Position numbers and translations under genes: made by a program. This document shows positions 1,402-14,915 of a stretch of 24,000 nucleotides of DNA, one piece after another; positions within the stretch are counted from its first letter, which is position 1; each line of letters starts with the position of its first letter. The DNA lies in assembly GCA_003225295.1 (NCBI GenBank), contig QHYZ01000047.1, positions 134,213 to 158,212 of the forward strand. Reading direction: 5' to 3'. Below the pieces are notes generated by a model. That model made no database searches. It saw only the letters and a program-made list of their open reading frames with translations, and was not told the origin of the DNA. This stretch comes from Acidobacteriota bacterium. Lineage in GTDB: Bacteria > Acidobacteriota > Terriglobia > Acidiferrales > UBA7541.

Positions 1402-2733
1402 TCAGGCCGCTGCTTGCGCTTCCACTGCGGCGATGAAATCGACGATTCGCTCCGACCAACCGTCAACGTGCGTCCAGCCGTTGCCGTAGCTGATGCCGTG
1501 TTTGTACGGGGCCACGTTCACCGCGTACGCGCGCGGCGCCCACGCTTGCAGGATGCCGTGGTGCGACTGCTCGTCGGTAATTACGATCAGCCGATCGAGT
1601 TCGCGCCACGCCGCCTTGTCGTGGAGCTGCGTCAGCGCGCGCTTGAGGTAGGTTCCCGAGTGCGCCTGCGAGCCCACCATGGCATCGCGCAACGCGAAGC
1701 CCCGTTGCGGAGGCAATTCGATGCAAGTGTCGGAGAAGGTCGCGATGGAGAACTCCTCGGCCTTCTCGCGAAGCAGAATCGCCAGCCCTGCCGCCGCGTC
1801 CATGCGCGTGGTCTGGCCCTTTTTCGACAGCTTGTAGTTCATCGAGCCGGACACGTCCACGACAAGCCCGGTCGACCCCGCAAGCTTCGCGATTCCGGCG
1901 ATGCTCTTGAGCATGGCCTTTTCGAGAGCGCCCTCGAGCCTGGGTGCGTGGCGTGCCGCCGTCACGAAGTGCAACGGCAGCGCTCGCGCGACGCCCTGGT
2001 CCAGCCGCTCGCGCACGAGCTTGGGATCGACGCCCGATGCCAGCATCAAGCGGAGGTTTCGCAGGACGGCCATGCCGCCGAGCTTCCCTTCGCGCAGCAG
2101 TCTCTCAAAGTTCTCGCGCTTGTCCTTCCCTGTGGACAAGGCAACCTCCCAGGTATCGGGAGGTTCGAGCGTGTTCTCAACGAGCTTCTTCCAGAGCGCG
2201 GCCTGCGCTTGGTCCTTGGGCTTCGCGTGGCAGAGGACCAGCACGTCGCGGAGCTTCACCGCCGATTCGCGGTCGTACTTCGCAAGCTGGTAGGCGTCGA
2301 ACTTCGTGAACGCTCGTGCCAGACCGCGCTTTACGCCCGCGGAGAGTGGCTGCTTCTTTTCCTTCCAGTAGAGGGCCACAAACTCGCCGAGTTCATCGGC
2401 CCGCTGGATGACGTCCTCGAGCGTTTCGGCCACGAGTCGGCCGGTGCCCTTGCGGCGCGCGAGTTCACGCGTGAGTAAGAGCGGCGCGTGACGAAGCTGC
2501 ATCTTGCTGCGTGCTTCCCGCGCGAGGGCGGCCACGACTTCTGGCGTGTTCTCGGCGGCAAGCGCGGCGATCTGCTTGGCGATGTCGTTGCCCTTCTCGT
2601 AGAAGGTGTCTTCCCAGAGCAGGCATGTGAGCACGGTGCGCCGTAGCTCGCTTTTCGCGTCCACCTTCTGCGCCACTGCTCCTTCATGCGTCCGCACCGG
2701 GAACATCGGCTTCCAGACGTTCTTCTTGGCCAT
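1402..2733 (-). CDS. rsr: Ro60-like RNA-binding protein (TROVE domain + C-terminal vWA/MIDAS)
   Basis: 443 aa. Blocks alignable by eye to human Ro60: LTCLLWEDTFYE vs FLCFGSEGGTYY; KLRDVLVLCHAKP vs KDLLRLSHLKP; MAVLRNLRLMLASGV vs LTALLRNLGKMTANSV; ALPLHFVTA vs RIHPFHILIA; GLVVDVSGSMN (MIDAS DxSxS) vs LLAVDVSASMN; LIVITDEQS vs FIVFTDNET. A strong Shine-Dalgarno GGAAAGGAGG lies 7 nt before the ATG. Confidence 0.85.
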   Translation of the reverse strand: MAKKNVWKPMFPVRTHEGAVAQKVDAKSELRRTVLTCLLWEDTFYEKGNDIAKQIAALAAENTPEVVAALAREARSKMQLRHAPLLLTRELARRKGTGRLVAETLEDVIQRADELGEFVALYWKEKKQPLSAGVKRGLARAFTKFDAYQLAKYDRESAVKLRDVLVLCHAKPKDQAQAALWKKLVENTLEPPDTWEVALSTGKDKRENFERLLREGKLGGMAVLRNLRLMLASGVDPKLVRERLDQGVARALPLHFVTAARHAPRLEGALEKAMLKSIAGIAKLAGSTGLVVDVSGSMNYKLSKKGQTTRMDAAAGLAILLREKAEEFSIATFSDTCIELPPQRGFALRDAMVGSQAHSGTYLKRALTQLHDKAAWRELDRLIVITDEQSHHGILQAWAPRAYAVNVAPYKHGISYGNGWTHVDGWSERIVDFIAAVEAQAAA

Positions 2734-2790
2734 TGCTAGTCCTCCTTTCCTGAAGGCTTTGCCCCTTCTCCAAGCGACAGGCCCCGGCCG

Positions 2791-3738
2791 TTAATCGAGA
2801 AACGCTAGAAAACGCATTGCGCTCGAGCGATTCTCGGTGTTCATCAGTACACGGTGCCAGCCAATGAGCGTCACGGTTTCGTGATCGGGATGCGACACCT
2901 TCCCGCGCACGTAAACCGTTGCATCGCGCTTCATGATGCGGAAGCCCCGATTGCGCTCGCTCGCTGGCAACTTCTTGTATTCCGGAGCGGTCAATCCGTT
3001 CGGATATCTCGCTGAGACATAAACGGTGTCTCCGCCGGACCGATAACACTCTTCAGCCCAGTGAGGCTTTCCGCCGTTGCCGCGAGAGAGCGGCTCGTCC
3101 TTGAGAACGAGCAATGGATCCGCTTTTACCGCCGTGGGGACGAAAAACCATTCCCCCTGGCGGATGAAGGCTGAATTCCTCCGCTGGAAGCTCGCTTTCC
3201 GCGATATTCCAAGCAGACCTTCTCGTGTCCGTACTTCCTCTGGCTTCAGCGCGATCTTTGCGCTCGCGACGGTGGTTACTGGTTCATTTTCTGGAATTGC
3301 CGCTACGAACCAGTGCCTTTCGTCATGACCGCAGAGAAACTTCTGCTTGGCCAAAAACCGCCCCTGCTCGTCGAACTGGCGGCTGAGCAGCAGCAAATGC
3401 TTTTCCCTTGGCTGGACGTTCAGAACGACGACTTCCTGCAAGCCGCCTGGAGCGGTTCGGATCTCGAAGAATTCGCCAATTTTGTCTCGACGAATATCGA
3501 GAACCATGCGCGGGGCTTCCTCCCGAGACCCAGCCAGGTTCCCACGACCAGCTGCAGGCACGTCCTCGAAAACCTTCACGCGTACGCCCATCCGAGAAAA
3601 ATATCGGTTCAAATCACTGCCCACTGCTTTTTCCTTTCTAAAGACTGCCCGTGGCAGTCGGAATGTGTTCACCGCTCGGAGTCTTGCTCCGAACCGTTCA
3701 AAAACAGACGAGTTGACGCCACAAGATTCTTGCCCCAC
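2791..3738 (-). CDS. Uncharacterised protein; no domain recognised
   Basis: 315-aa ORF ending 57 nt upstream of rsr on the same strand. Its composition is plausible for a protein, unlike the antisense shadow ORFs. Recurrent His/acidic motifs: CGHDERHWFVAAIP, RQGEWFFVP, GGKPHWAEE, SHPDHETVTLIGWHRV. The start is a GTG at 3738, 12 nt after AAGGAG (3751-3756), so the start is uncertain. The next in-frame Met (3591) has no Shine-Dalgarno sequence. Confidence 0.6.
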   Translation of the reverse strand: MGQESCGVNSSVFERFGARLRAVNTFRLPRAVFRKEKAVGSDLNRYFSRMGVRVKVFEDVPAAGRGNLAGSREEAPRMVLDIRRDKIGEFFEIRTAPGGLQEVVVLNVQPREKHLLLLSRQFDEQGRFLAKQKFLCGHDERHWFVAAIPENEPVTTVASAKIALKPEEVRTREGLLGISRKASFQRRNSAFIRQGEWFFVPTAVKADPLLVLKDEPLSRGNGGKPHWAEECYRSGGDTVYVSARYPNGLTAPEYKKLPASERNRGFRIMKRDATVYVRGKVSHPDHETVTLIGWHRVLMNTENRSSAMRFLAFLD

Positions 3739-3767
3739 TTCATTTCTTTTCTCCTTGACCGTAACCG

Positions 3768-3901
3768 AAAAAACTCCGGACGGGAACCCCTAGCCAGGGA
3801 ACATTAGCCGCTCTATCCATTGAGCTACTGGCCCGTATCAGCCAGGTGGGAATCGAACCCGTAACCGCCCGCTCTTGAGCCGAAGTAAGCCCGTCCTGAA
3901 C
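3768..3901 (-). ncRNA. Candidate YrlA-type Y RNA (permuted tRNA-like module A)
   Basis: The minus strand reads GGG-TTCGATT-CCC (3860-3848, T-arm-like). Next comes CTGGC-tgatacgg-GCCAG (3845-3828, a loop-capped acceptor-like stem). Then TA (U8/A9 equivalents) and GCTC-AATGGATA-GAGC (3825-3810, a D-arm with A14, G18G19 and A21 equivalents). The module is enclosed by GGACGGG (3896-3890) pairing with CCCGTCC (3784-3778), with 3 further pairs beyond a mismatch. It is followed by GGAG + T6 (3773-3768). It is adjacent to and co-oriented with rsr. The ends are approximate. Confidence 0.55.
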
Positions 3902-4299
3902 CGCGTCCAACTTTGTTGTCTGCGCTCAAAGCATCCGCACAAGCGATTCTTGGTTAGCGTCACCACCGCTGGCGGCGATTTTCCCCAGCCCCGGCGCGAA
4001 CCGCCGACTGTTCCGCGGTTCGCGCCGGCCAAATTCGAGCCGGGAGGAATAATCGAGCAGAGCTGCGGAGCGGCAGCTCCGCATCGCTTAACCACGAAGT
4101 ATCTCTGCGCAGCGCCATCCCGGCAGCTCATCTGGTGGGAACAAGCGGTTCGCGTTTGTCTGAGCCACTGCTTCTTACCAAGCAAACGAGAATTGCACTC
4201 GCGACCTCCCCAGTTCATCGCCGGGGCGCTCGATAGAAGTAACGCTCACCTTCCCGACACCAGAAACTCTCGCGGCAGGAATCGGCGGTCCAGGTATTT

Positions 4300-4370
4300 C
4301 TCCGCTGCTCTATCCGTTGAGCTACGGCAGCTCGCGCCAGCGGCAGGAGTCGAACCCGCAGCCGTCGGAG
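4300..4370 (-). ncRNA. Second permuted tRNA-like module (module B); a Y RNA-like core with undefined transcript ends
   Basis: The minus strand reads CTCCG (4370-4366), acggct, then GCGGG-TTCGACT-CCTGC (4359-4343, a 5-bp T-arm with one G.U). Next is a short capped stem (4342-4325; GGC/GCC plus wobble pairs). Then TA and GCTC-AACGGATA-GAGC (4322-4307), ag, and CGGAG (4304-4300), which pairs back to CTCCG. Together these give a closed four-way junction in the same permuted order as module A. Confidence 0.5.
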
Positions 4371-4815
4371 CCCGATGTAACCCCGGCCTTCACCACGCCG
4401 CAAACTCTTCAAACTTTCCAAGCGCTTCTCTCCTCGTTTACCCGGCCCCGTGACTCCTTCACTAGCGCACACCCGTAGCGTGGCGTTTCGTTCTTCAAGG
4501 ATCCACGGCGTCAAAGAAATCCGGAAGGGATCAGCCCTCACGGTGAAACTGCATTCTTGCCTGAAGAGCACTGCGTACTCCCGAGGCCAGAACCAGCCGT
4601 GAACTTCATCGTCCCTGGACACAAATCCCGAGGCCGATAATCTTAAATCGAAACCACTTAGGCGGCTTGTTTTACAGTCGCGCGAACAAGCAGTCCACGA
4701 GACCTGATCGCCTTGGTGTTATCCCGCATTGGCTCTTGTCTTCGTGTCTCATAATCTGCTCTTCACGCTCAGCAAGGACCTCGGCTAAGCCGAGGCGTAC
4801 GACTGAGGTATCACG

Positions 4816-4844
4816 AAAGTAAACGGATTCGGAAAGTCTGTCAA
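4816..4844 (-). promoter_or_regulatory. Possible sigma70-type promoter reading toward the RNA modules
   Basis: On the minus strand: TTGACA (4844-4839), a 17-nt spacer, then TACTTT (4821-4816). An A/T-rich tract (ttttcaaaaatag) lies immediately upstream. It sits in the only visibly AT-rich patch of the window. Called from sequence pattern only. Confidence 0.2.
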
Positions 4845-4937
4845 GAACTATTTTTGAAAAGCAGCGTTTTTGGCCCATTTTTGCGGTGCTTGTTAATTTC
4901 AAAGTACTTATAGGCCGCCCGACCCACGCCGCGGTCT

Positions 4938-6203
4938 TCATTCGTACCGCAGGCAAACGATGGGGTCAAGGTTAGCAGCTAGATTCGCCGGATAGTATCC
5001 GAAGAACAGTCCCACACCGACGGAGATGGCAAACCCAATGGAGACCCACAGATAGGACAATGTCGCGGGAATTGAAGGCACGAGTGTACGCACCAGAATG
5101 GACACGCCTGCCCCGATCAGAATGCCGATCGAGCCGCCGACCAGGGTGAGCACCACGGCTTCCAGCAAAAATTGTAGGCGGACATCCGCGCGGCGCGCGC
5201 CGATGGCTTTGCGCACGCCAATTTCCTGGGTGCGCTCGGTCACGGAGATGAGCATGATATTCATTACGCCGATGCCGCCCACGAGCAGCCCGATCGAACT
5301 GATGACCGTAGTGAGAATGACCAGCGCGCCAGTGAGCTGGTTCCAAAGATTGCTGAGGAAATCCGGTGAGCTCAACTCGAAATCATTTTCCTGTCCCGCA
5401 GGGATACGGCGGAGACGGCGCAACGTCTGAATAACTTCGCCGTGCGCGGTTTCGACGTTGACGTTCTCCGGAACAGTGAATGCCATAATCAATTCTTTGG
5501 CTTCCGGGTACTGTTTCTTGAAGTTGCTGAGCGGGATGACCACAAAGATGTCCACGCCCGGGCCGAGGAACAAGCCCTGGTCATGCTCGAATACGCCGAT
5601 CACTTCGTAAGCGGCGCCATTGACGCGCACAGTCTTCCCCAGGGCGTCCGTGTTGGGGAACAGCGATTCGCTGATGGCCGCGCCCAGCACAACGACGGGC
5701 CGCGCATGCTCCTGATCGAAGGCGCTGATGAAACGGCCGCGCTCGATGCTGAACAACGGAATCGCCTCGGTGTACTCCGGCTCCGCGCCGCGTATGACAA
5801 CCTTCTCGACACTGCGGTCACCGCTGATAATGCGATTGCTGTCACCGAAGAAGAAGCCCCGCGTGCCAAACGTCGTGACGATATGCACGTCGGGTGCAGC
5901 ATTTCGGACAAACTCGGCGTAATTGTATTCAAGATACTTGCGCGTTCGAATCCGTTCTGGCAAGCGGGATGGGTCGGTGCCGAACGGGAATCGTGAAATA
6001 AAATAAGTGCGCGACCCCAGCCGCTCCACCCGGTCCTGCACAAACTTGTTCAGACCTTGAATGATGGCCGCCATGGAAATCACCGAAGATACACCGATGA
6101 CGATACCCAGCACGGTCAAGGCGGAGCGCACCTTGGACGAGCGCAACGTCTCCAGTGCGGCAAACAGATTCTCCCGCGTTTGCGCAAGCGTCATAATGGC
6201 CAT
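4938..6203 (-). CDS. ABC transporter permease, MacB-like periplasmic core + FtsX domain
   Basis: The track ORF (4938..6608) is over-extended by 135 junk codons that overlap the upstream gene. The real start is the ATG at 6203-6201 (MAIMTLAQTRENLFAALETLRSSKVRSALTVLGIVIGVSS...). It overlaps the upstream stop as TAATG. The C-terminal FtsX helices include TERTQEIGVRKAIGARRADV. Confidence 0.85.
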   Translation of the reverse strand: MAIMTLAQTRENLFAALETLRSSKVRSALTVLGIVIGVSSVISMAAIIQGLNKFVQDRVERLGSRTYFISRFPFGTDPSRLPERIRTRKYLEYNYAEFVRNAAPDVHIVTTFGTRGFFFGDSNRIISGDRSVEKVVIRGAEPEYTEAIPLFSIERGRFISAFDQEHARPVVVLGAAISESLFPNTDALGKTVRVNGAAYEVIGVFEHDQGLFLGPGVDIFVVIPLSNFKKQYPEAKELIMAFTVPENVNVETAHGEVIQTLRRLRRIPAGQENDFELSSPDFLSNLWNQLTGALVILTTVISSIGLLVGGIGVMNIMLISVTERTQEIGVRKAIGARRADVRLQFLLEAVVLTLVGGSIGILIGAGVSILVRTLVPSIPATLSYLWVSIGFAISVGVGLFFGYYPANLAANLDPIVCLRYE

Positions 6204-7423
6204 TAGTCGGACCTCAAAGCCACAATCGGGTCCAGCTGTGACGCGCGCACTGCCGGATATATTCCGAAAAACAATCCGACTGCGGAGCTCAGCAGTACTC
6301 CTAGCACCGCGACCCACGTTTGCACCGCCGCTGGGAACGGCGTATACGTGCGCAGTGCCAGCGCCACCAGAAATCCGAGAGAGATGCCCAGAGCGCCGCC
6401 GGCGATACATTGCATGACGCTTTCGGCCATGAACTGCCGCAGAATGTCGCTCTTCGTCGCACCCACTGCGCGGCGCACGCCGATTTCCCGTCGCCGCAAG
6501 TTCACACTTACCAGCATCACGTTCATGATGACGATTCCGCCGATGACCACTGAGATCGCGCTCACCAGAATGAAAACGCCGAAAAACGCCGAGCTGATGC
6601 TGCGCCACAAGGCCATGTAGCTTTCTTTCGTGCCGATGAAGAAATCATCTTCCATCTTGCCACTGAGGTGACGTCGCGCCCGCAGGACCAGGTCGGCCTG
6701 ATCCTGTGCCTTTTCAAAATCACCGGTGTTTGTCCTGACGTTGATCGTGAGGCTGGTGTGCACACCTTGCATGCGCAGAAATACCGGCAGGGGGACAATG
6801 ATGAAATTGTCCTGGTCCTGCCCCAGAACACTGCCGATCTTCTCGATGACCCCAATTACCACGAGTTCGTCATTACCGACACGAAGGTTCTTCCCGATGG
6901 GGTCCATGCCGAGAAACAGCTGCTGCACCAGTGTGTCGCCGATCAAGCAAACATCAGTGTGGTGCTCGGCTTCTGCGGCCGTGAAGTAGCGGCCAAATTC
7001 CACAGTGCGCGTATCAATGTCGGCCATGTTTGGCGTTTGCCCATAGAAATTCACATCGGTCACCTCTTTGTTGGCGTATCTTGCGTGCGCGCTTCCGCTG
7101 GCCGTGGCGCCAACCTCCTGGCAAGCGGGACAGCCTTCTGCAACCGCGCGCATGTCCTCGAGCTCAATCTTCTTGAACTTCAGCGCCTTGATAATGATGT
7201 TGAAATCGGTCACCGCGAAGGGAGTGCGCGCGATTTGAAAGACGTTTGTGCCCAGGTTGGCGATCTTTTGCTCGACGTAGACGTTTGCGCCCTGCACGAT
7301 GGTCATGACCGTGATGAGTGTGGCCACACCCATCGTCAGCCCCAGCATGGTGAGCGAGGCGCGCAGTTTGTGCGTGCGCAGGGCACTCAAGCATTGCCCG
7401 AGATTGTCACGGAGAGCGAGCAT
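6203..7423 (-). CDS. ABC transporter permease, MacB-like periplasmic core + FtsX domain
   Basis: 406 aa. It has an N-terminal TM helix (LRASLTMLGLTMGVATLITVMTIV), a large periplasmic domain, and a C-terminal FtsX region (RRREIGVRRAVGATKSDIL...). It is a paralogue of the downstream gene. Confidence 0.85.
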   Translation of the reverse strand: MLALRDNLGQCLSALRTHKLRASLTMLGLTMGVATLITVMTIVQGANVYVEQKIANLGTNVFQIARTPFAVTDFNIIIKALKFKKIELEDMRAVAEGCPACQEVGATASGSAHARYANKEVTDVNFYGQTPNMADIDTRTVEFGRYFTAAEAEHHTDVCLIGDTLVQQLFLGMDPIGKNLRVGNDELVVIGVIEKIGSVLGQDQDNFIIVPLPVFLRMQGVHTSLTINVRTNTGDFEKAQDQADLVLRARRHLSGKMEDDFFIGTKESYMALWRSISSAFFGVFILVSAISVVIGGIVIMNVMLVSVNLRRREIGVRRAVGATKSDILRQFMAESVMQCIAGGALGISLGFLVALALRTYTPFPAAVQTWVAVLGVLLSSAVGLFFGIYPAVRASQLDPIVALRSD

Positions 7424-7621
7424 GGGCTAAAGGGAACTGCCATTCACTCTATCAAATCCTTTGGGCGCGCACTCAAAGCTCGCGCCCCACATCGGAATCG
7501 TCTCTAAGTGAATACGGAAGGAGAGCTGCGGGAGTTACAGGGCTCGGATCGTAATTCAGGGGGTGCCGGATTCTTTGCCAGTTGAAACGCCGGTGGGGCT
7601 GCAGTGCCTGGCGGCAGGCCG

Positions 7622-9445
7622 CTAATGGCCCACCTGCTCGTCCATCCAGCGCTTGATACGCGCTTCCAAGACACTCAGGGGCACCGCGCCTTCTTCAAGC
7701 ACCGCATCATGAAATTTGCGCACCTCGAATCTTTCGCCCAGTTTCTTCTGGGCTTCCGAGCGCAACTCGCGAATCTTCATCTGCCCGATCTTGTACGCGA
7801 GCGCCTGCCCCGGCCACACGATGTAGCGATCGACTTCGACGGTGATGTCCTGATCGGTCTTTCCGGTATGCTCGCGGAAGAAATCAATGGCCTGCTGCCG
7901 GGTCCAGCCCATGGAATGCATCCCGGTATCCACCACGAGCCTTACCGCGCGCCACATTTCGTAGCCCAGCTGCCCGAATTTCGAATACGCATCTTTGTAC
8001 ATGCCCAGCTCTTCGCCGAGGCTCTCCGAATACAATGCCCAGCCCTCGACAAACGCGGAGTAGCCGAGGTGTTTTCGAAATTCAGGTACGTTTTCCATCT
8101 CCTGCCCGAGCGAAAGCTGAAGATGATGCCCGGGCACCGCCTCATGCAGCGAGAGCGCCTCCATTTCCCACTTTGGTCGCGCGTGAAGGTTGAAGGTGTT
8201 GACGAAATAGCAGCCTGGCCGCCCGGCACTCGGTGCACCCGGTTGATAATACGCCGTTGTCTGTGAAGGCGCTTTGAACTCCGGAATCACGCATACGCCG
8301 TAAGGAAGCCGAGGCAGCTTGCCGAAGAGATGCGCGAGTTCTGGGTCGATCTTTTTTGTGATAATGCGGTAACCGTTCACCAGATCATCCGCCCGGTCAT
8401 AATAGAAGCGCTGATCCGTGCGCAGAACTTCCGTGAAATCGTGGAAGCTGCCCTGGAATCCCGCCGAGGCAATGACCTTGTCCATCCCCACGCGGATACG
8501 TTTTACTTCGGAAAGTCCGATCTCGTGAATCTGTTGCGGCGTCAAGTTCGTGGTGGTCTGCCAGCGCACATGAAACGCGTAAGCTGCGGCGCCGTTGGGC
8601 AGCGCCGTTGCCGCGATCGATTCACGGCAGGCCGGCAGGTACGTCGAAGTCACGTAGTCGTGTAGTTTCTGAAACGCCGGAGCAACGGCGCTGGCGTAAA
8701 GCTTCTTGGCGCGATCGGTAAGCCGGATGCGCTCCACTTCGGGAAATCCCGCGGGGAATTCCTTGAACGGCTCCAGCGGCGGGCTAGCCAGCGGATCGGC
8801 GGGAATCAGACCAGCGATTTGTTTCGGAACATCGCGCAGCATCAACTTCGGCGGCGTATAGCCTTTGTTCAAACCCTCCTGAAGAAACAAACGATTCTGT
8901 TCAATGCTGCCCGGCAGCGCTGCGAGCCGCGCAAGAATATCCTCGTAATCCGCGACCGTTTGGCGCGGCATCGCCGCGATTATTTCTGCCGCACCCTGCT
9001 GGATTCCACCCATCTGCGTTATGGGCATCCAAGAGTTACTCGGGACAACATCACGGAATGGGATAGGATCGTCGCCGTACTGCAAGCCCTCTTCCGCCGT
9101 TTCCAGAAGCTCCCGGTAAAGGTCGTAGTTGAATTGTTCCTCGGCCGGGAGTCGATCGCGCGGAATGGAATCGAGCTTCGTGAGACTCTCGTGGAGGTGG
9201 CGGATTCTCGCTTGCAGGCCCTCTCGCGAATCGTCGCGCCACCGGCGGTTCTGCCCGGGAAACCCAACGAGAGTCGCGGTTTCGGGATATTCCCGCATCC
9301 AGCGTTTCCAATCTTCATGGAGATAAGCGCGGAATTTTCGGCTTGCTTCCGCTGAGCTGGAACTGGTTTGTGCCATCGTCAGCAAGGGCATCACCAGCAG
9401 CGCGCTGCCTGCGGAAAATGCCAGCATCAATGATGTTCGAATCAC
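7622..9445 (-). CDS. DUF885 family secreted protein
   Basis: 607 aa with an N-terminal signal-like segment (LMLAFSAGSALLVMPLLTMAQ) and the family-typical HEAVPGHHLQ motif. The GTG start overlaps the cmk stop as GTGA. Confidence 0.8.
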   Translation of the reverse strand: MIRTSLMLAFSAGSALLVMPLLTMAQTSSSSAEASRKFRAYLHEDWKRWMREYPETATLVGFPGQNRRWRDDSREGLQARIRHLHESLTKLDSIPRDRLPAEEQFNYDLYRELLETAEEGLQYGDDPIPFRDVVPSNSWMPITQMGGIQQGAAEIIAAMPRQTVADYEDILARLAALPGSIEQNRLFLQEGLNKGYTPPKLMLRDVPKQIAGLIPADPLASPPLEPFKEFPAGFPEVERIRLTDRAKKLYASAVAPAFQKLHDYVTSTYLPACRESIAATALPNGAAAYAFHVRWQTTTNLTPQQIHEIGLSEVKRIRVGMDKVIASAGFQGSFHDFTEVLRTDQRFYYDRADDLVNGYRIITKKIDPELAHLFGKLPRLPYGVCVIPEFKAPSQTTAYYQPGAPSAGRPGCYFVNTFNLHARPKWEMEALSLHEAVPGHHLQLSLGQEMENVPEFRKHLGYSAFVEGWALYSESLGEELGMYKDAYSKFGQLGYEMWRAVRLVVDTGMHSMGWTRQQAIDFFREHTGKTDQDITVEVDRYIVWPGQALAYKIGQMKIRELRSEAQKKLGERFEVRKFHDAVLEEGAVPLSVLEARIKRWMDEQVGH

Positions 9446-10164
9446 AGATTTGCTCCCGCAACCCCCGCCAATTCTTTCGCGCGATCCTCGGCGAGCATGA
9501 CGATCAACCGCGCGGTTTCTTCGATGCCCATGGCGGTGTTGTCCACCAGCACGGCGTCCCCCGCGCGCACGAGCGGGGACACTTTGCGTTCGCGATCGCG
9601 GCGGTCGCGCTCTATCACTTCGTCGAAAACTTCGGCGAGCGTCATCTTCTCGCCTTTTTCCTGGTGCTCTTTCCAGCGGCGTTCCGCGCGCTCTTCCGGC
9701 GATGCATCCAGAAAAATCTTCAGCTCGGCGTTTGGGAAAACGACGGTTCCGATGTCCCGCCCTTCCATCACGACTCCGCCGCCCCCACCGGCGCGCTGCT
9801 GCTCGGCGACCAGTACGCGACGCACTCCGGCAATCGTTGCGAGTCGCGACGCCGCTTGCGCCACTGCCGGAGTACGAATTTCCCTCGTCACGTCTGTACC
9901 GTCGAGGAATACACCATTGGTCGCGCCCGCCGCTTCCTGCTCCGGTTTAGGGGGCTGTAGTTCGATGTGCGTTTCTTTCGCAAGTGTTTCCAGTCCGACC
10001 TCGTCATTCAGCGACGCACCGTGCCTCAGCGCCTTCAGCGCCAGCGCGCGGTAGGTGGCCCCGCTGTCTAGATACAGATACCCGAGCATGGCGGCAACGC
10101 GCCGCGCCACGCTGCTTTTGCCGGACCCCGCAGGACCATCGATAGCGATAGTAAGTTTTGCCAT
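9442..10164 (-). CDS. cmk: Cytidylate kinase
   Basis: 240 aa. IAIDGPAGSGKSSVARRVAAMLGYLYLDSGATYRALA is the canonical Cmk N-terminus with its P-loop. Confidence 0.9.
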   Translation of the reverse strand: MAKLTIAIDGPAGSGKSSVARRVAAMLGYLYLDSGATYRALALKALRHGASLNDEVGLETLAKETHIELQPPKPEQEAAGATNGVFLDGTDVTREIRTPAVAQAASRLATIAGVRRVLVAEQQRAGGGGGVVMEGRDIGTVVFPNAELKIFLDASPEERAERRWKEHQEKGEKMTLAEVFDEVIERDRRDRERKVSPLVRAGDAVLVDNTAMGIEETARLIVMLAEDRAKELAGVAGANL

Positions 10165-10250
10165 CTTCGTGGTTCAGCTCGGTCTTGGGTGTGAGCCTTT
10201 GCTTTGAGGCGGCCGCCAACCGGGCACCGGCAAGAGTCCCTGTGCCACTC

Positions 10251-11015
10251 TCAAAATCCCATGATGTTATAGCCGCAATCGACGTAAATCGTTTCGCCAG
10301 TGATACCGGAACCGGCCTCGGAGAGCAGGAACGCAGCGGTCCCGCCAACTTCCCCCGGATCGACGTTGCGCTTGAGCGGGGCGCGCTCGGCATGCGCCTT
10401 CAACATGTCTCCCAACCCAGAGATCCCTCGTGCCGCCAGCGTTTTGATCGGGCCGGCAGAGATGGCATTCACTCGGATGTTCTTCGGCCCCAGGTCGTTT
10501 GCCAGATAGCGCACACTTGCTTCGAGTGCGGCCTTAGCGACACCCATCACGTTGTACTTCGGCACGACTTTTTCCGCGCCGTAGTACGTCAGCGTGACGA
10601 TTCCTCCGCCCGCCGTCATCAGCGGCGCGGCAGCGCGCGCCACCGCGACCAGCGAGTACACGCTGATGTCATGCGCGATACGAAATCCCTCGCGCGTGGT
10701 GTTCACAAATTCGCCCTTCAATTCTTCCGCAGGAGCAAACGCCACGCTGTGCACGATCCCGTTCAACAAGCCATATCGCGTTTTTAGTTCATCGAAGAGT
10801 CTTGCGATTTGGTCGTCCGACGAGACATCACACATGAAGCCCGCCGCGCCCGGCAGATCGGTGATCAAGTCTCTGGCTTCCTGCTCCATCCGATCGTTCT
10901 GATAGGTGATAGCCAGCCGCCAGCCGGCTTGGTGCAGCTTCTGGGCGATAGCCCACGCAATGCTGCGCTTGTTGGCCAGGCCGAAAATCACTCCCGTTTT
11001 CTGCGTCTCCGTCAT
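10251..11015 (-). CDS. fabI: Enoyl-[acyl-carrier-protein] reductase (NADH)
   Basis: 254 aa. The Rossmann N-terminus GLANKRSIAWAIAQKL and the catalytic YNVMGVAKAALE block are typical of FabI. Confidence 0.9.
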   Translation of the reverse strand: MTETQKTGVIFGLANKRSIAWAIAQKLHQAGWRLAITYQNDRMEQEARDLITDLPGAAGFMCDVSSDDQIARLFDELKTRYGLLNGIVHSVAFAPAEELKGEFVNTTREGFRIAHDISVYSLVAVARAAAPLMTAGGGIVTLTYYGAEKVVPKYNVMGVAKAALEASVRYLANDLGPKNIRVNAISAGPIKTLAARGISGLGDMLKAHAERAPLKRNVDPGEVGGTAAFLLSEAGSGITGETIYVDCGYNIMGF

Positions 11016-11175
11016 CCGCGTCTCCCCACACTTATCATCCTGAGGTCCCCACCGGTCGGGGCCCGAACGATCTCATCGCAACCATCTGCGACCAACTTCG
11101 GATTGCGCGCCAATCATCACCTTGAGTTCCTGTGCTTCCCTCAGGATGACAATATGCTTTGCGTGCATGACATGG

Positions 11176-13131
11176 CTAAATGCGATGAAAGGCCTTCTCA
11201 ATTTCTTTCATGGAATACCGCAGCACCACCGGCCGCCCATGCGGGCAGCTCATCGGACAATCGGTCTTGGCCAGCGCGTCCAGCAGCCATTCCATTTTCG
11301 ATTGTTCGAGCGGCGTGTTCACCTTGATCGCCGCGTGGCACGCGGTGGACGCCGCGATTTTCGCCTGCAGTGTTTCCATCGAAATCGCCGCGTTTTCGCG
11401 CTCGATGCCATCGAGAATTTCGGTGAGCAGTTTTTCAGCATCGGGCGCGCCAACCCCGGCGGGCACGGCCTGGATCGCCACGCTCTTAGGACCCATGGGC
11501 TCGACTTCAAATCCGTTCGCGAACAGTTCTTCGGTGATCTTTTCAAACGTGACGATCTGGCGGGGCGACAATTCAATCACCAGCGGCATGAGCATGCGCT
11601 GCGATTCTACTCTTCCGGCGCGCCGCGCTTCCAAATGCTGCTCAAAGAGTACGCGCTCGTGCGCCACATGTTGATCTACGATCCACAGCCCTTCGCCGTT
11701 CACGGCAACGATGAAGCTTGCGCTCACCTGACCCAGTGGCTTTAGATCTGCTATGTGTTCGGTGCGCGGGAGACTCGCGGGAGCGTCCGCGCTAGGGGCG
11801 GCGAGATTGGCGGCCCAATTTCCAGAAGAAGTCTGCGCTGGTGCGACAGCTGCGCCAAAGGCAGTCCCGGAAGTGAATGGAATCCGCTGTTCGACGGGTC
11901 CGAGGGTCGCGCCGGTGGGATCAAATCCACCGTCGGAGCCGACACCGACCTCTTCCACGGGAGGAATAATCGCGCGCGGCACGCGCGATTCCACCGCCGC
12001 GGGCGTTATGCCACCGGAAAACGTCCCATTTCCTGAGCCCCCGGTTTGCGGCGTGGCGGCAGCGGCCGCAGCGAAACTTGCAATCGGCCGCGCGCCCATC
12101 AATGCTTGCCGAATTGCATCGCGCGCAAAATCGTGGACCAATTGGGAACGCCGGAAGCGCACTTCGATTTTTGCCGGATGCACGTTGACGTCGACTTCGT
12201 CGTAGGGCATCTCCAGGAAAAGCAGCGTCGCGGGAAAGACGGCCGGCGGGAGAATGTTGCGATAGGCCTCGTGAATGGCGTGCAGAATCAGCCGGTCACG
12301 CACCAGGCGCCGGTTTACAAAAATGTAGATTCCATTGCGATTCATCCGCTGTATGTCGGGACGCGAGGTAAACCCACTCACCGTCAGCGATGACTTTTCG
12401 TCTTGCGGTTCGAGTTCCGGCTCGGTGATGGCCGCGCGGAAAGGCGCAGAGACGGCGAGAATTTCCACCAGCTCTTCCAGTGCTTGCCGTCCGAAGAGTT
12501 GATAGACGCGGTCGGCCAGCTTCTCCGCGGGCGGACAGTTAATGATTTCCTGGGTCGGGGTCGTGAGAATGAATTGTTTGCCGGGATTCGCGAGCGCGTA
12601 GTGGGTGACCAGCGAAGCGATGTGGCCCAACTCCGTGGTGTCCGCCTTGAGGAATTTTCTGCGCGCTGGGACACAATAAAAAATGTCGGCGACGCTGATG
12701 GTCGTTCCCACAGGCAAACCCGCCGACTTTACGTTAACCAGCTTGCCCCCCGCGAATTCGACGCGCGTGCCTTCGGCTTCCGCTTCCTCACGCGTTTCGA
12801 GCAGCAATCGCGATACGGCGGCGATCGTTGGCAAGGCCTCACCGCGAAATCCCAGCGTGGCAATCGAGAGCAGATCGTCTGCCGAGCGCAACTTGCTCGT
12901 GGCGTGGCGCTCGAACGCCAACAGCGCATCGTCATGGGTCATCCCGTGACCATCATCGATCACGCGAATCATGCGCTTGCCGCCGACCTCCACTTCGACA
13001 CGAATCGTCTTCGCACCTGCGTCGATGGCATTCTCCAGGAGCTCTTTCACCACCGACGCCGGCCGCTCGACAACCTCGCCCGCGGCGATTTTATTCGCCA
13101 CCGCCTCCGGCAATATACGTATCCGTGACAT
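11176..13131 (-). CDS. mutL: DNA mismatch repair protein MutL (endonuclease-type)
   Basis: 651 aa. GHKL ATPase N-terminus: IRILPEAVANKIAAGEVVERPASVVKELLENAIDAGA. It has an Ala/Pro-rich linker and the C-terminal DQHVAHERVLFE endonuclease motif. The start overlaps the aspS stop as TGATG. Confidence 0.95.
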   Translation of the reverse strand: MSRIRILPEAVANKIAAGEVVERPASVVKELLENAIDAGAKTIRVEVEVGGKRMIRVIDDGHGMTHDDALLAFERHATSKLRSADDLLSIATLGFRGEALPTIAAVSRLLLETREEAEAEGTRVEFAGGKLVNVKSAGLPVGTTISVADIFYCVPARRKFLKADTTELGHIASLVTHYALANPGKQFILTTPTQEIINCPPAEKLADRVYQLFGRQALEELVEILAVSAPFRAAITEPELEPQDEKSSLTVSGFTSRPDIQRMNRNGIYIFVNRRLVRDRLILHAIHEAYRNILPPAVFPATLLFLEMPYDEVDVNVHPAKIEVRFRRSQLVHDFARDAIRQALMGARPIASFAAAAAATPQTGGSGNGTFSGGITPAAVESRVPRAIIPPVEEVGVGSDGGFDPTGATLGPVEQRIPFTSGTAFGAAVAPAQTSSGNWAANLAAPSADAPASLPRTEHIADLKPLGQVSASFIVAVNGEGLWIVDQHVAHERVLFEQHLEARRAGRVESQRMLMPLVIELSPRQIVTFEKITEELFANGFEVEPMGPKSVAIQAVPAGVGAPDAEKLLTEILDGIERENAAISMETLQAKIAASTACHAAIKVNTPLEQSKMEWLLDALAKTDCPMSCPHGRPVVLRYSMKEIEKAFHRI

Positions 13132-14915
13132 CAGCTGAGCCTGTCAGTCTCTAGGGCGATGCCCAACTGGTCAAGCTGGTCTTGGTCCACTGGTGACGGC
13201 GAATCGGCCATCAAATCCTGTGCGGCAGTCGTTTTCGCGAAGGCGATGACTTCGCGGATGGACTTTTCACCGGCGAGGAGCATGACCACGCGGTCGATCC
13301 CGAGTGCGATGCCGCCATGCGGAGGAGTGCCATAGGTCAACGCGTCGAGGAAGAAACCGAAGCGGCGACGCAATTGCTCTTCGGATAGGCCCAGCGCTTT
13401 GAACAAGCGCTCCTGAATGTCCTGGCGGTGAATTCGAATGCTGCCGGAGCCGAGCTCATTGCCATTCAGAACGAGGTCGTAGCCTTTCGAACGCACTTCC
13501 CAGGGCGCCGATTCGAGCTTTTCCAGGTCTTCATCGACGATGCCGGTGAAGGGATGCTGCGCGCTCACCCAGGTTTTGTCGGACTCGCTCCATTCGAACA
13601 GCGGAAAGCCTGTGAGCCACAAGAATTTCCACTGGGACCTGTCGATCACGCCGAGTGCTTCACCAAGGTGAACACGTAATTGACCCGCGATCAGCGCGGC
13701 TGCTTCGGTGCCTTTGATTTGTTCTTTCGCGGAAACAGCGACAACCAGATCGCCGGCCTTCGCGCCGCATGCCTCGGCGAGCTTCTTCACATTCTCCGCG
13801 CCGATCAATTTCTCAACCGTCGAGGTCAACCCTTCCGGTGCTACTTTTACGAAATATGCGCCGCGCGCGTGGAGCGACTTGGCCTTCTCCGTCAACTCGT
13901 CAAGCTGCTTGCGCGAATAGCCTGCCGCTCCCGGGGCGGCAAAAGCGAAGACATGGCCTTCGATCTGCAGTTTTTCCTTTGCCGAGACTGGGAAACAAGG
14001 CGTCACTTCATGCAATTCCATTCCAAAGCGCATGTCCGGTTTGTCGCTGCCGTACGTTCGAATGGCATCCTTATAGAGCATGTGCGGGAACGGCGCTTCG
14101 GCCTTGATGCCTGCGACAGCACAAGCACGCACCATCACGTTTTCGATCACGCGGAAGACGTCTTCCTGCCTCGGAAATGACATTTCCAGGTCGAGCTGCG
14201 TGAATTCGAGCTGGCGGTCAGCGCGCAAATCTTCGTCTCGGAAGCACTTCACGATCTGAAAGTATTTGTCCACCCCGGCGATCATCAGAATCTGCTTGAA
14301 AATCTGTGGCGACTGCGGCAGCGCGTAAAACTGCCCGTGATGAATACGACTGGGCACAAGAAAGTCGCGCGCCCCTTCCGGCGTCGAGCGCGTGAGCATG
14401 GGGGTTTCCACTTCGAGGAAGCCCATCTCGTCCATCACCTTGCGAATTTCGAGGATGATCTTGTGGCGCAGCGCGAGATTATGGTGCGGCTTCGGCCGAC
14501 GAAGGTCGAGATAGCGGAAGCGCAGGCGCGTCTCTTCCGCCGCGTTGATTTCGTCTTCGATCGGGAAGGGAGGCGTCTTGGCGTTATTCAGAATGTGCAA
14601 TTTCGCCGCCACGAGCTCCACTTCCCCGCTGGACAATTCCGGATTGGCTTTCTGCCGCTTGAGGACCTTGCCCTCGACGGCGACGACGAATTCGCCGCGT
14701 GCCTGCTCGGCTTTGGCGTGCGCCGCAGGCTGCGTCTCTTTGTTGAAGACTACTTGGACGATGCCGGTGCGGTCGCGCACGTCGAGAAAGAGCAGATTGC
14801 CCAGGTCGCGGCGCCGCGCCACCCAGCCCATCACAACAGCTTCTTGTCCTTCGTGCTTCGCGCGGAGCTCGCCGCAGTAATGTGTGCGCTTCAAGTTTCC
14901 CAGAAAGTCCAGCAC
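13131..14915 (-). CDS. aspS: Aspartate--tRNA ligase
   Basis: 594 aa, bacterial type with an insertion domain. Motifs: RTHYCGELR, FLDVRDRTGIVQVV, ALPQSPQIFKQ, FRDEDLRADRQLEFTQLDLEMSF, PPHGGIALGIDR. GTG start. Confidence 0.95.
   Translation of the reverse strand: MLDFLGNLKRTHYCGELRAKHEGQEAVVMGWVARRRDLGNLLFLDVRDRTGIVQVVFNKETQPAAHAKAEQARGEFVVAVEGKVLKRQKANPELSSGEVELVAAKLHILNNAKTPPFPIEDEINAAEETRLRFRYLDLRRPKPHHNLALRHKIILEIRKVMDEMGFLEVETPMLTRSTPEGARDFLVPSRIHHGQFYALPQSPQIFKQILMIAGVDKYFQIVKCFRDEDLRADRQLEFTQLDLEMSFPRQEDVFRVIENVMVRACAVAGIKAEAPFPHMLYKDAIRTYGSDKPDMRFGMELHEVTPCFPVSAKEKLQIEGHVFAFAAPGAAGYSRKQLDELTEKAKSLHARGAYFVKVAPEGLTSTVEKLIGAENVKKLAEACGAKAGDLVVAVSAKEQIKGTEAAALIAGQLRVHLGEALGVIDRSQWKFLWLTGFPLFEWSESDKTWVSAQHPFTGIVDEDLEKLESAPWEVRSKGYDLVLNGNELGSGSIRIHRQDIQERLFKALGLSEEQLRRRFGFFLDALTYGTPPHGGIALGIDRVVMLLAGEKSIREVIAFAKTTAAQDLMADSPSPVDQDQLDQLGIALETDRLS

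Follow-up and report, generated by a model that had tools for sequence, protein, structure and literature searches.

RNA repair and quality control in bacteria are served by two established systems, the Ro60/Y-RNA particles and the Rtc operon. Both are found in the Salmonella-type rsr-yrlBA-rtcBA operon, which is controlled by RtcR and encodes a TROVE/Ro60 protein together with tRNA-like YrlA RNAs (PMC7790460; PMC4201824). Here, a 24,000-nucleotide stretch of DNA from an Acidobacteriota bacterium (contig QHYZ01000047.1), referred to as the window, is compared with this and other systems. The window shares a TROVE/Ro60 protein and tRNA-like YrlA RNAs with the Salmonella-type operon, but it also carries a protein that has no counterpart in the described operon. 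This protein, encoded at 2791..3624 on the minus strand, is called X throughout, and residue numbers follow its 277-amino-acid form. Additional differences are that RtcB, RtcA and RtcR, as well as KptA, were not found in the 24 kb of the window, that the TROVE protein of the window is short and divergent, and that its Y RNA modules are located upstream in tandem. While the Ro/Y RNA, Rtc and tRNA-island RNA repair systems are known, the new element is X, a component without a family entry in the libraries searched.

A second described system is the RYPER complex of Deinococcus, consisting of Rsr, Y RNA and PNPase, in which the Y RNA tethers PNPase to Ro. In a similar way, X is a candidate effector whose gene accompanies those of Ro and the Y RNAs, and it might be tethered as PNPase is. 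However, X resembles neither PNPase nor KH/S1 domains, and PNPase is encoded outside the rsr locus whereas X lies inside it. Thirdly, jumbo phages carry islands of tRNA and RNA-repair genes (PMC7824862). Viral homologs of X are likewise situated among 5 to 46 tRNA genes, with RtcB, Rnl2-type ligase, RlaP, PTH2, TROVE, NADAR, NUDIX and nicotinamide adenine dinucleotide (NAD)-salvage genes beside them. In contrast, the TROVE and RNA-repair passages of that survey contain no such family, and none of 50,697 GenBank phage records matches the window protein.

The observations described below establish that the X gene is real, that its family is large and matches no known family or fold, and that its neighborhoods recur. 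From these observations we infer RNA binding, catalysis and tethering through YrlA. In the reading that we favor, and to which we give roughly even chances, X represents an undescribed large family of tRNA-centered RNA repair or quality-control sets, would work as a metal-dependent enzyme on tRNA-shaped RNA and would, in the window, be tethered to Ro via YrlA. The protein would be a basic, metal-dependent enzyme with a putative site composed of Asp101/Glu102, Arg155-Gln-Gly-Glu158, His188, His245, His248, Asn262/Glu264 and Asp277. It would recognize tRNA-shaped RNA and process or heal RNA ends, either as a nuclease or as a phosphoesterase. In the window, X may be brought next to the Ro ring by the tRNA-like part of the Y RNA, while in phage and bacterial tRNA arrays it may act directly on tRNAs or on precursors of them. 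Wang et al. (10.1101/312249) describe the effector of YrlA as not known and predict a protein binding the tRNA elbow; X fits this prediction by its genomic context only.

The earlier note on this DNA, made from the letters alone, had described an open reading frame (ORF) of 315 amino acids at 2791..3738. This ORF, on the minus strand and with a GTG start, exists and is conserved, but its coding part is most likely limited to the 277 codons from the GTG at 3624 to the TAA stop at 2791–2793. The coding sequence is taken as 2791..3624 because homologs are 266–280 amino acids long and their alignment begins at the residue matching this GTG, because an AAGGA Shine–Dalgarno-like sequence can be read at 3632–3636, 7 nt upstream of it, and because conservation of the in-frame upstream extensions of relatives is confined to the purine-rich Shine–Dalgarno stretch (‘LRKEKAV’). 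The 38 codons ahead of this GTG in the 315-amino-acid ORF (3625..3738, minus strand), which are missing from most homologs, are therefore probably untranslated. The ratio of nonsynonymous to synonymous substitution rates (dN/dS), calculated with the Nei–Gojobori method for eight orthologs, amounts to 0.12–0.36 with dS up to 1.7, and to 0.12–0.18 across deep divergence. X is thus under purifying selection. With more than 5,500 homologs at E ≤ 1e-3 and these dN/dS values, X is more than a chance ORF, and the possibility of a non-conserved ORF, which the note had put forward against its own proposal, does not hold. X is a genuine, strongly conserved protein-coding gene. Between the last YrlA-like module and the start of X, a 25-codon ORF (MKWGKNLVASTRLFLNGSEQDSER; window 3666–3757, minus strand) opens at ATG 3743 in another frame than the 315-amino-acid ORF, preceded by a strong AAGGAG ribosome-binding site at 3752–3757. 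It could be a leader peptide or a chance ORF. A 38-amino-acid gene is likewise called just upstream of X in loci L002 and L004.

The X family is very large and is mainly found in Acidobacteriota, Planctomycetota and on large uncultivated phage contigs. A word-indexed search returned 5,581 related proteins at E ≤ 1e-3, of which the best 120 (69–99% identity) are all named ‘hypothetical protein’ in their source. When 1.84 billion 50%-identity representatives were searched exhaustively with a profile, 1,835 clusters matched with E ≤ 1e-3, and 505 did so with E ≤ 1e-30. Among GTDB species genomes, a relative is encoded at 561 loci or more. The best 80 of these, which are the genome loci in all neighborhood counts below, come from Acidobacteriota, Planctomycetota, one Dormibacterota metagenome-assembled genome (MAG) and a few others. 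In IMG/VR, 97 X loci were confirmed, mostly on contigs of 50–530 kb, and 79 IMG/VR loci are used as viral loci in the counts. The window itself is 93% identical to an Acidobacteria ‘gp1’ MAG. Some Planctomycetota MAGs contain two paralogs of X (L016/L084 on contig CAVXOB010000002.1, L026/L032 and L033/L043); L016 is a stand-alone copy, while L084 lies within an array of tRNA genes that also contains YrlA-like modules and a TROVE gene of the long form.

In the window, X is the middle gene of a co-oriented unit that comprises two or three YrlA-like RNAs, then X and then a TROVE/Ro60-like protein. The first YrlA-like module (3771..3905, minus strand), directly upstream of X, scores 33.5 bits with the Rfam YrlA model (E 7.7e-5, 3780–3893), and the second (4266..4397, minus strand) scores 27.3 bits (4273–4386); both scores are below the gathering score of 69. 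With R1, a covariance model for which 28 YrlA-like modules served as the training set, they reach 86.4 and 109 bits, respectively, with both being part of the training set. A possible third, degenerate module (4126..4259, minus strand), which lies between the two clear ones and is outside the training set, scores 33 bits with R1 (E 2e-5). Downstream of X, the TROVE gene (1402..2733, minus strand; 443 amino acids) scores 52.8 bits with Pfam TROVE (cut-off 23) and 26.8 bits with vWA_Ro60, just under the cut-off. It reaches only 27.7 bits with the NCBIfam Rsr equivalog, for which the cut-off is 900. What the note called rsr is, judged by these scores, a short, divergent TROVE and vWA form. The position that the note had given to X is borne out, as X lies on the same strand as this TROVE/vWA gene, 57 nt upstream of it, and downstream of the two clear YrlA-like modules. 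The 57-nt spacer (2734..2790, minus strand) carries the ribosome-binding site of the TROVE gene, GGAAAGGAGG; in orthologous loci the spacing is 61–101 nt. In the lineage of the window, the YrlA-X-TROVE unit is kept tight and is flanked by ordinary chromosomal genes, i.e., rho, lon, clpX and an EAL-HDOD gene. ARAGORN found no tRNA in the window.

Outside the window, TROVE genes were detected in the flanks with an iterated TROVE profile, which identified one in 23 of the 80 genome loci and in 12 of the 79 viral loci. The 23 genome loci comprise nearly every Acidobacteriota-type locus, together with the Dormibacterota locus and three Planctomycetota loci. When neighbors were clustered, TROVE was the only gene widely common among the genome loci. 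Most of the TROVE-bearing genome loci contain full-length YrlA-like modules according to R1, namely two to six in the loci of Acidobacteriota type and one or more in the majority of the others, but only about two of the 12 viral ones do (L103 and L122). The order of the elements differs between lineages. Acidoferrales-type loci like the window have two to six tandem YrlA-like copies upstream of X, while in Terriglobales-type loci and in the Dormibacterota locus the modules are situated between X and the TROVE gene. YrlA-like modules are additionally present in L034, L051, L078 and L084, and also in L083, a locus of Acidobacteriota type where no TROVE gene was detected in the stretch examined. 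Among the relatives with many copies, L009 and L014 have up to five or six tandem modules upstream of X. The functional tie to the Ro/Y-RNA locus that the note had proposed is supported by this arrangement of YrlA-like modules, X and TROVE, which is kept in two gene orders across Acidobacteriota lineages and recurs in some Planctomycetota, on roughly a dozen phage contigs and in one MAG of Dormibacterota.

X is also associated with the genes of the Rtc system. Three Acidobacteriaceae MAG contigs (L054, L058 and L063) contain, at approximately 2340–12620, a block in which a divergent rtcR is followed by rtcB, rtcA, X, two YrlA copies and TROVE, all in one orientation. Pfam supports the Rtc part of this block with 437 bits for RtcB, 280 bits for RTC and 282 bits for RtcR. 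As it adds RtcR, RtcB and RtcA to TROVE and YrlA, this block is the Salmonella-type RtcR-controlled repair operon (PMC7790460) plus X. The note had supposed that X might act in place of RtcB/RtcA. This part of the proposal fails, as these three loci carry X in the same operon as rtcB and rtcA. Since relatives carry both, X is not a replacement that excludes RtcB, RtcA, RtcR or KptA. Within the stretches examined, the Rtc/Ro operon is followed by a co-oriented tRNA array of about 26 genes in L058 and of 10 genes in L063; the short stretch examined for L054 contains no tRNA.

Five viral loci moreover encode RtcB at a distance of less than 10 kb from X; in one of them (L092) it lies 100 nt downstream. 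In five Planctomycetota loci (L018, L025, L026, L039 and L045), a gene for the RNA 2′-phosphotransferase Tpt1/KptA (PF01885, 174 bits) is located directly downstream of X on the same strand. The Tpt1 and RtcA/RtcB neighbors suggest that X may be concerned with chemistry on 2′/3′-phosphate ends. To our knowledge, the cellular substrates of bacterial Tpt1/KptA are unclear.

On viral contigs, X is often found among tRNA genes. A tRNA gene is present within 10 kb of X in 52 of the 79 viral loci, at least five are present in 40 and at least ten in 24, and 615 of these 626 viral tRNA genes are on the strand of X. In 33 viral loci tRNA genes flank X on both sides. A similar organization exists in Planctomycetota, where X lies inside an array of 30 tRNA genes in L072 and of 28 in L084. 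Other neighbors of viral X encode HNH endonucleases, NADAR, NUDIX, NAPRTase, RlaP, PTH2, Rnl2-type RNA ligase and ARPP-1, and LAGLIDADG and endonuclease VII genes are also frequent. These islands match the theme of ‘RNA repair plus NAD’ that has been reported for jumbo phages (PMC7824862). The wider association of X is with tRNA arrays and RNA-repair genes in general.

The sequence of X itself contains a core that is conserved throughout the family, including viral members with about 25% identity. Invariant or near-invariant residues are D101 (usually followed by E102), F106, A122, L126 (with K127 and P128), R155-Q-G-E-W-F-F161, H188, G241, H245, H248 (with T250), N262, E264 and the C-terminal D277. 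In the predicted secondary structure of the model, these core positions are located at strand ends and turns. The His/Asp/Glu clusters to which the note had drawn attention (GHDERH, KPHWAEE and HPDHE) are present and coincide with this core. The protein is basic, with an isoelectric point (pI) of 9.8 for the window protein and a family median of 9.9, and a basic helical segment (residues 130–153) is situated just before the invariant RQGEWFF. Because invariant Asp, Glu and His residues occur in a basic protein, these features point to a putative metal or catalytic site on a nucleic-acid-binding protein.

The central module of X has remote counterparts in phages. Distant viral members of the family match phrog_29643 and phrog_7247 at 1e-7 to 1e-20, both of which are PHROGs of unknown function. 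One such distant member matches only ‘hypothetical proteins’ of Gordonia and Microbacterium phages, with uninformative neighbors. When the X profile was compared by hhalign with gp165 of Gordonia phage OneUp, the central module aligned over 70 columns with a probability of 89.8% (E 1.8e-6), with RQGDMFAIP in gp165 placed where X reads RQGEWFFVP. The module D-E...F...LP...A..LKP...RQG[DE]xF.P is shared by phrog_29643/phrog_7247, OneUp gp165 and Microbacterium OneinaGillian gp96. These hypothetical ‘RQGD’ proteins are longer than X (423–510 amino acids), and in the two phage genomes that were inspected their genes are not accompanied by tRNA or Ro genes. The resemblance to such proteins that the note had pointed out has some basis in the central module, although the window protein itself misses those PHROG profiles. 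The central module is thus probably a remote homolog of the phage ‘RQGD’ proteins, which brings no function.

The description of X as unrecognizable stands after searches of Pfam (2025 copy), NCBIfam (June 2026), PADLOC, PHROGs and PDB and after structure prediction. The window protein has no match in Pfam, NCBIfam or PADLOC and one marginal match in PHROGs (phrog_31170, E 0.063). Among 83 diverse and 29 viral members there is no consistent Pfam match, only scattered chance ones, and the longer members have no informative Pfam domain fused; an apparent WD40 fusion (P0242) seems to be a gene-call artifact. PDB searches by sequence and by profile gave chance matches, such as the L1 ribosomal protein (E 0.48, via the string ‘RQNEWF’) and 3r2t (E 0.044). 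For the window protein and the 112 members, no profile match was obtained between X and RtcB, RtcA, PNPase, RNA ligases, Pnkp or Tpt1. A literature search, which did not cover Burroughs and Aravind 2016 (PMC5062991), revealed no mention of the X family.

An AlphaFold2 model of X based on 73 sequences was confident, with a predicted local distance difference test score (pLDDT) of 86.1 and a predicted template modeling score (pTM) of 0.79. In the model, an N-terminal helix is followed by a seven-strand β region, three short helices and a second β-rich half. Foldseek found no significant match in PDB for the full model (best E 0.16, template modeling score <0.2) or for a core-only model (residues 89–277, pLDDT 83.6; best E 0.21). 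The single structural match in BFVD was an unnamed viral protein of 424 amino acids (E 3e-6). Individual enzyme classes were considered as well. A 2H phosphoesterase (LigT/ThpR/CPDase) was rejected, as there is a single H-x-T motif (H248-x-T250), H188 is followed by A, C or V, and no fold match was obtained. A PD-(D/E)xK reading was rejected on account of incomplete motifs and, again, the lack of a fold match. In the predicted secondary structure, from which the comparison with HNH/His-Me fingers was made, a conserved H..H hairpin is followed by N-x-E at a helix start.

Several results weigh against X being a Ro-tethered enzyme of tRNA-centered repair. Firstly, TROVE and YrlA are both absent from the 7 kb around some 55 stand-alone copies in Planctomycetota; their neighbors are unrelated, and no conserved non-coding element was found beside them beyond local synteny. 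Secondly, the reciprocal test was negative. IMG/VR contains at least 313 loci with a short-form TROVE gene and 54 with the long form of approximately 540 amino acids, and in the 134 viral TROVE loci inspected (54 long-form and 80 short-form) X was present in only three, all of them already known. Since 31 of the 54 long-form loci (L167–L220) have at least five tRNA genes within 10 kb, mostly without X, phage Ro60 homologs themselves reside in tRNA islands, and the co-occurrence of X and TROVE in phages may simply reflect shared islands instead of a specific link. Thirdly, the surroundings of viral X are broad tRNA islands, because the tRNA density is 0.3–0.7 per kb over most of the 10 kb on either side. 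Fourthly, scans of the window for promoters, terminators and sigma-54 sites gave nothing above chance and lend no support to co-transcription. Lastly, no family or fold match of X offers a catalytic precedent, and the residues of the putative site were placed from predicted secondary structure.

Because of the stand-alone Planctomycetota copies and the negative reciprocal test, X is not a dedicated or obligate Ro subunit; instead, it is one among several genes found repeatedly near tRNA or tRNA-like genes and RNA-repair enzymes. A more far-reaching form of the favored reading, which we regard as possible but doubtful, is that X would be a metal-dependent RNA end-processing enzyme with a new fold that takes part in Rtc/Ro/Tpt1 repair in bacteria and keeps tRNAs functional under attack in the islands of huge phages.

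The alternative that survives best, although we consider it unlikely, is that X is a non-catalytic adaptor or chaperone that binds the elbow of a tRNA or of YrlA and in this way bridges or stabilizes ribonucleoprotein particles like Ro-YrlA, or protects tRNAs. The neighborhood evidence is equal for this explanation and for an enzyme. The basic nature of the protein (pI ~9.9), with its basic helical segment (residues 130–153) ahead of RQGEWFF, would suit an adaptor, and no catalytic fold has been recognized. However, Asp, Glu and His, with the C-terminal Asp among them, make up most of the positions that do not vary even in members with 25% identity. Such a pattern is typical of metal or catalytic sites and not of plain RNA-binding surfaces.

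Quite improbable, in our opinion, is a role of X as a phage counter-defense factor of tRNA islands, e.g., as an inhibitor of host anticodon nucleases or in handling decoys against them. In that case the copies in bacteria would have been domesticated or would reside in prophages, and the theme of conflict would also account for the location beside rsr. Consistent with this, X lies in tRNA islands beside RNA-repair and NAD-salvage/ADP-ribose genes, which have been proposed to counter attacks of the host on translation (PMC7824862), and some MAGs have two paralogs, with the stand-alone L016 and the tRNA/TROVE island copy L084 on one contig. Nevertheless, the chromosomal Acidobacteriota loci flanked by rho, lon and clpX show stable synteny and purifying selection. 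No PADLOC model of anti-phage defense is matched by X or by the TROVE protein of the window, and neither the window protein nor two viral members matched anything in GenBank phages or PLSDB plasmids.

Even less credible is an explanation in which X is a selfish, homing-type nuclease or a passenger of mobile tRNA arrays, comparable to the free-standing HNH/Seg endonucleases in phage tRNA regions. Its sites of insertion would lie between genes for tRNAs or tRNA-like RNAs, so that the tRNA-like Y RNA genes alone would explain why it is found close to rsr. X indeed occupies intergenic positions among tRNA genes, with HNH, LAGLIDADG and endonuclease VII genes as frequent neighbors, and in the model H245-x-x-H248 ... 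N262-x-E264 would form a β-hairpin followed by a helix that loosely resembles ββα-metal fingers. A homing element is, however, difficult to reconcile with the low dN/dS over deep divergence, with an operon order that is kept across Acidobacteriota and with the many stand-alone chromosomal copies that are not near tRNA genes. Furthermore, no HNH or endonuclease family of Pfam was matched by the 83 diverse and 29 viral members, and Foldseek found no similarity to His-Me nucleases. Least probable of all is that the neighborhoods are coincidental and the role of X unrelated, since the variable neighbors without a common theme in most bacterial loci (~55 of 80) have to be set against independent, recurrent adjacency to the rare TROVE, RtcB/RtcA and Tpt1 genes and to tRNA arrays, which is seen in lineages that are not related and with more than one order of the genes.

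As a family of thousands of sequences beside TROVE and YrlA, RtcBA, Tpt1 and tRNA arrays, X is a concrete and clonable candidate for experiments, and it may be a component that RNA repair has so far lacked. Should X bind RNA of tRNA shape and be active, it would represent a new enzyme or fold for RNA repair; X would then explain part of the role of Ro-YrlA, and a common gene of the tRNA islands of huge phages would be annotated. If not, the family would still merit an entry of its own as a domain, being large and without annotation.

Some minor observations concern the surroundings of X. In the window, a possible promoter of the Y RNA/X/TROVE unit, situated approximately 420 nt upstream of the YrlA-like modules and consisting of TTGACA (4839–4844), a 17-nt spacer and TACTTT (4816–4821, minus strand), was read by eye and was not reported by the consensus scan. 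On viral contigs, a protein with an ARPP-1/ARPP-2 domain (PF20208, 91 bits) is encoded within a few kb of X in six loci (L100, at 12584–13603, L099 and four others). Transfer-messenger RNAs or suppressor-type tRNAs occur on the contigs of L089, L095, L096, L122 and L123, and of L098, L099, L114 and L133. The suppressor-type anticodons are CUA (‘Pyl’) and UUA (‘Stop’), a hint that stop codons are reassigned or suppressed in those large phages.

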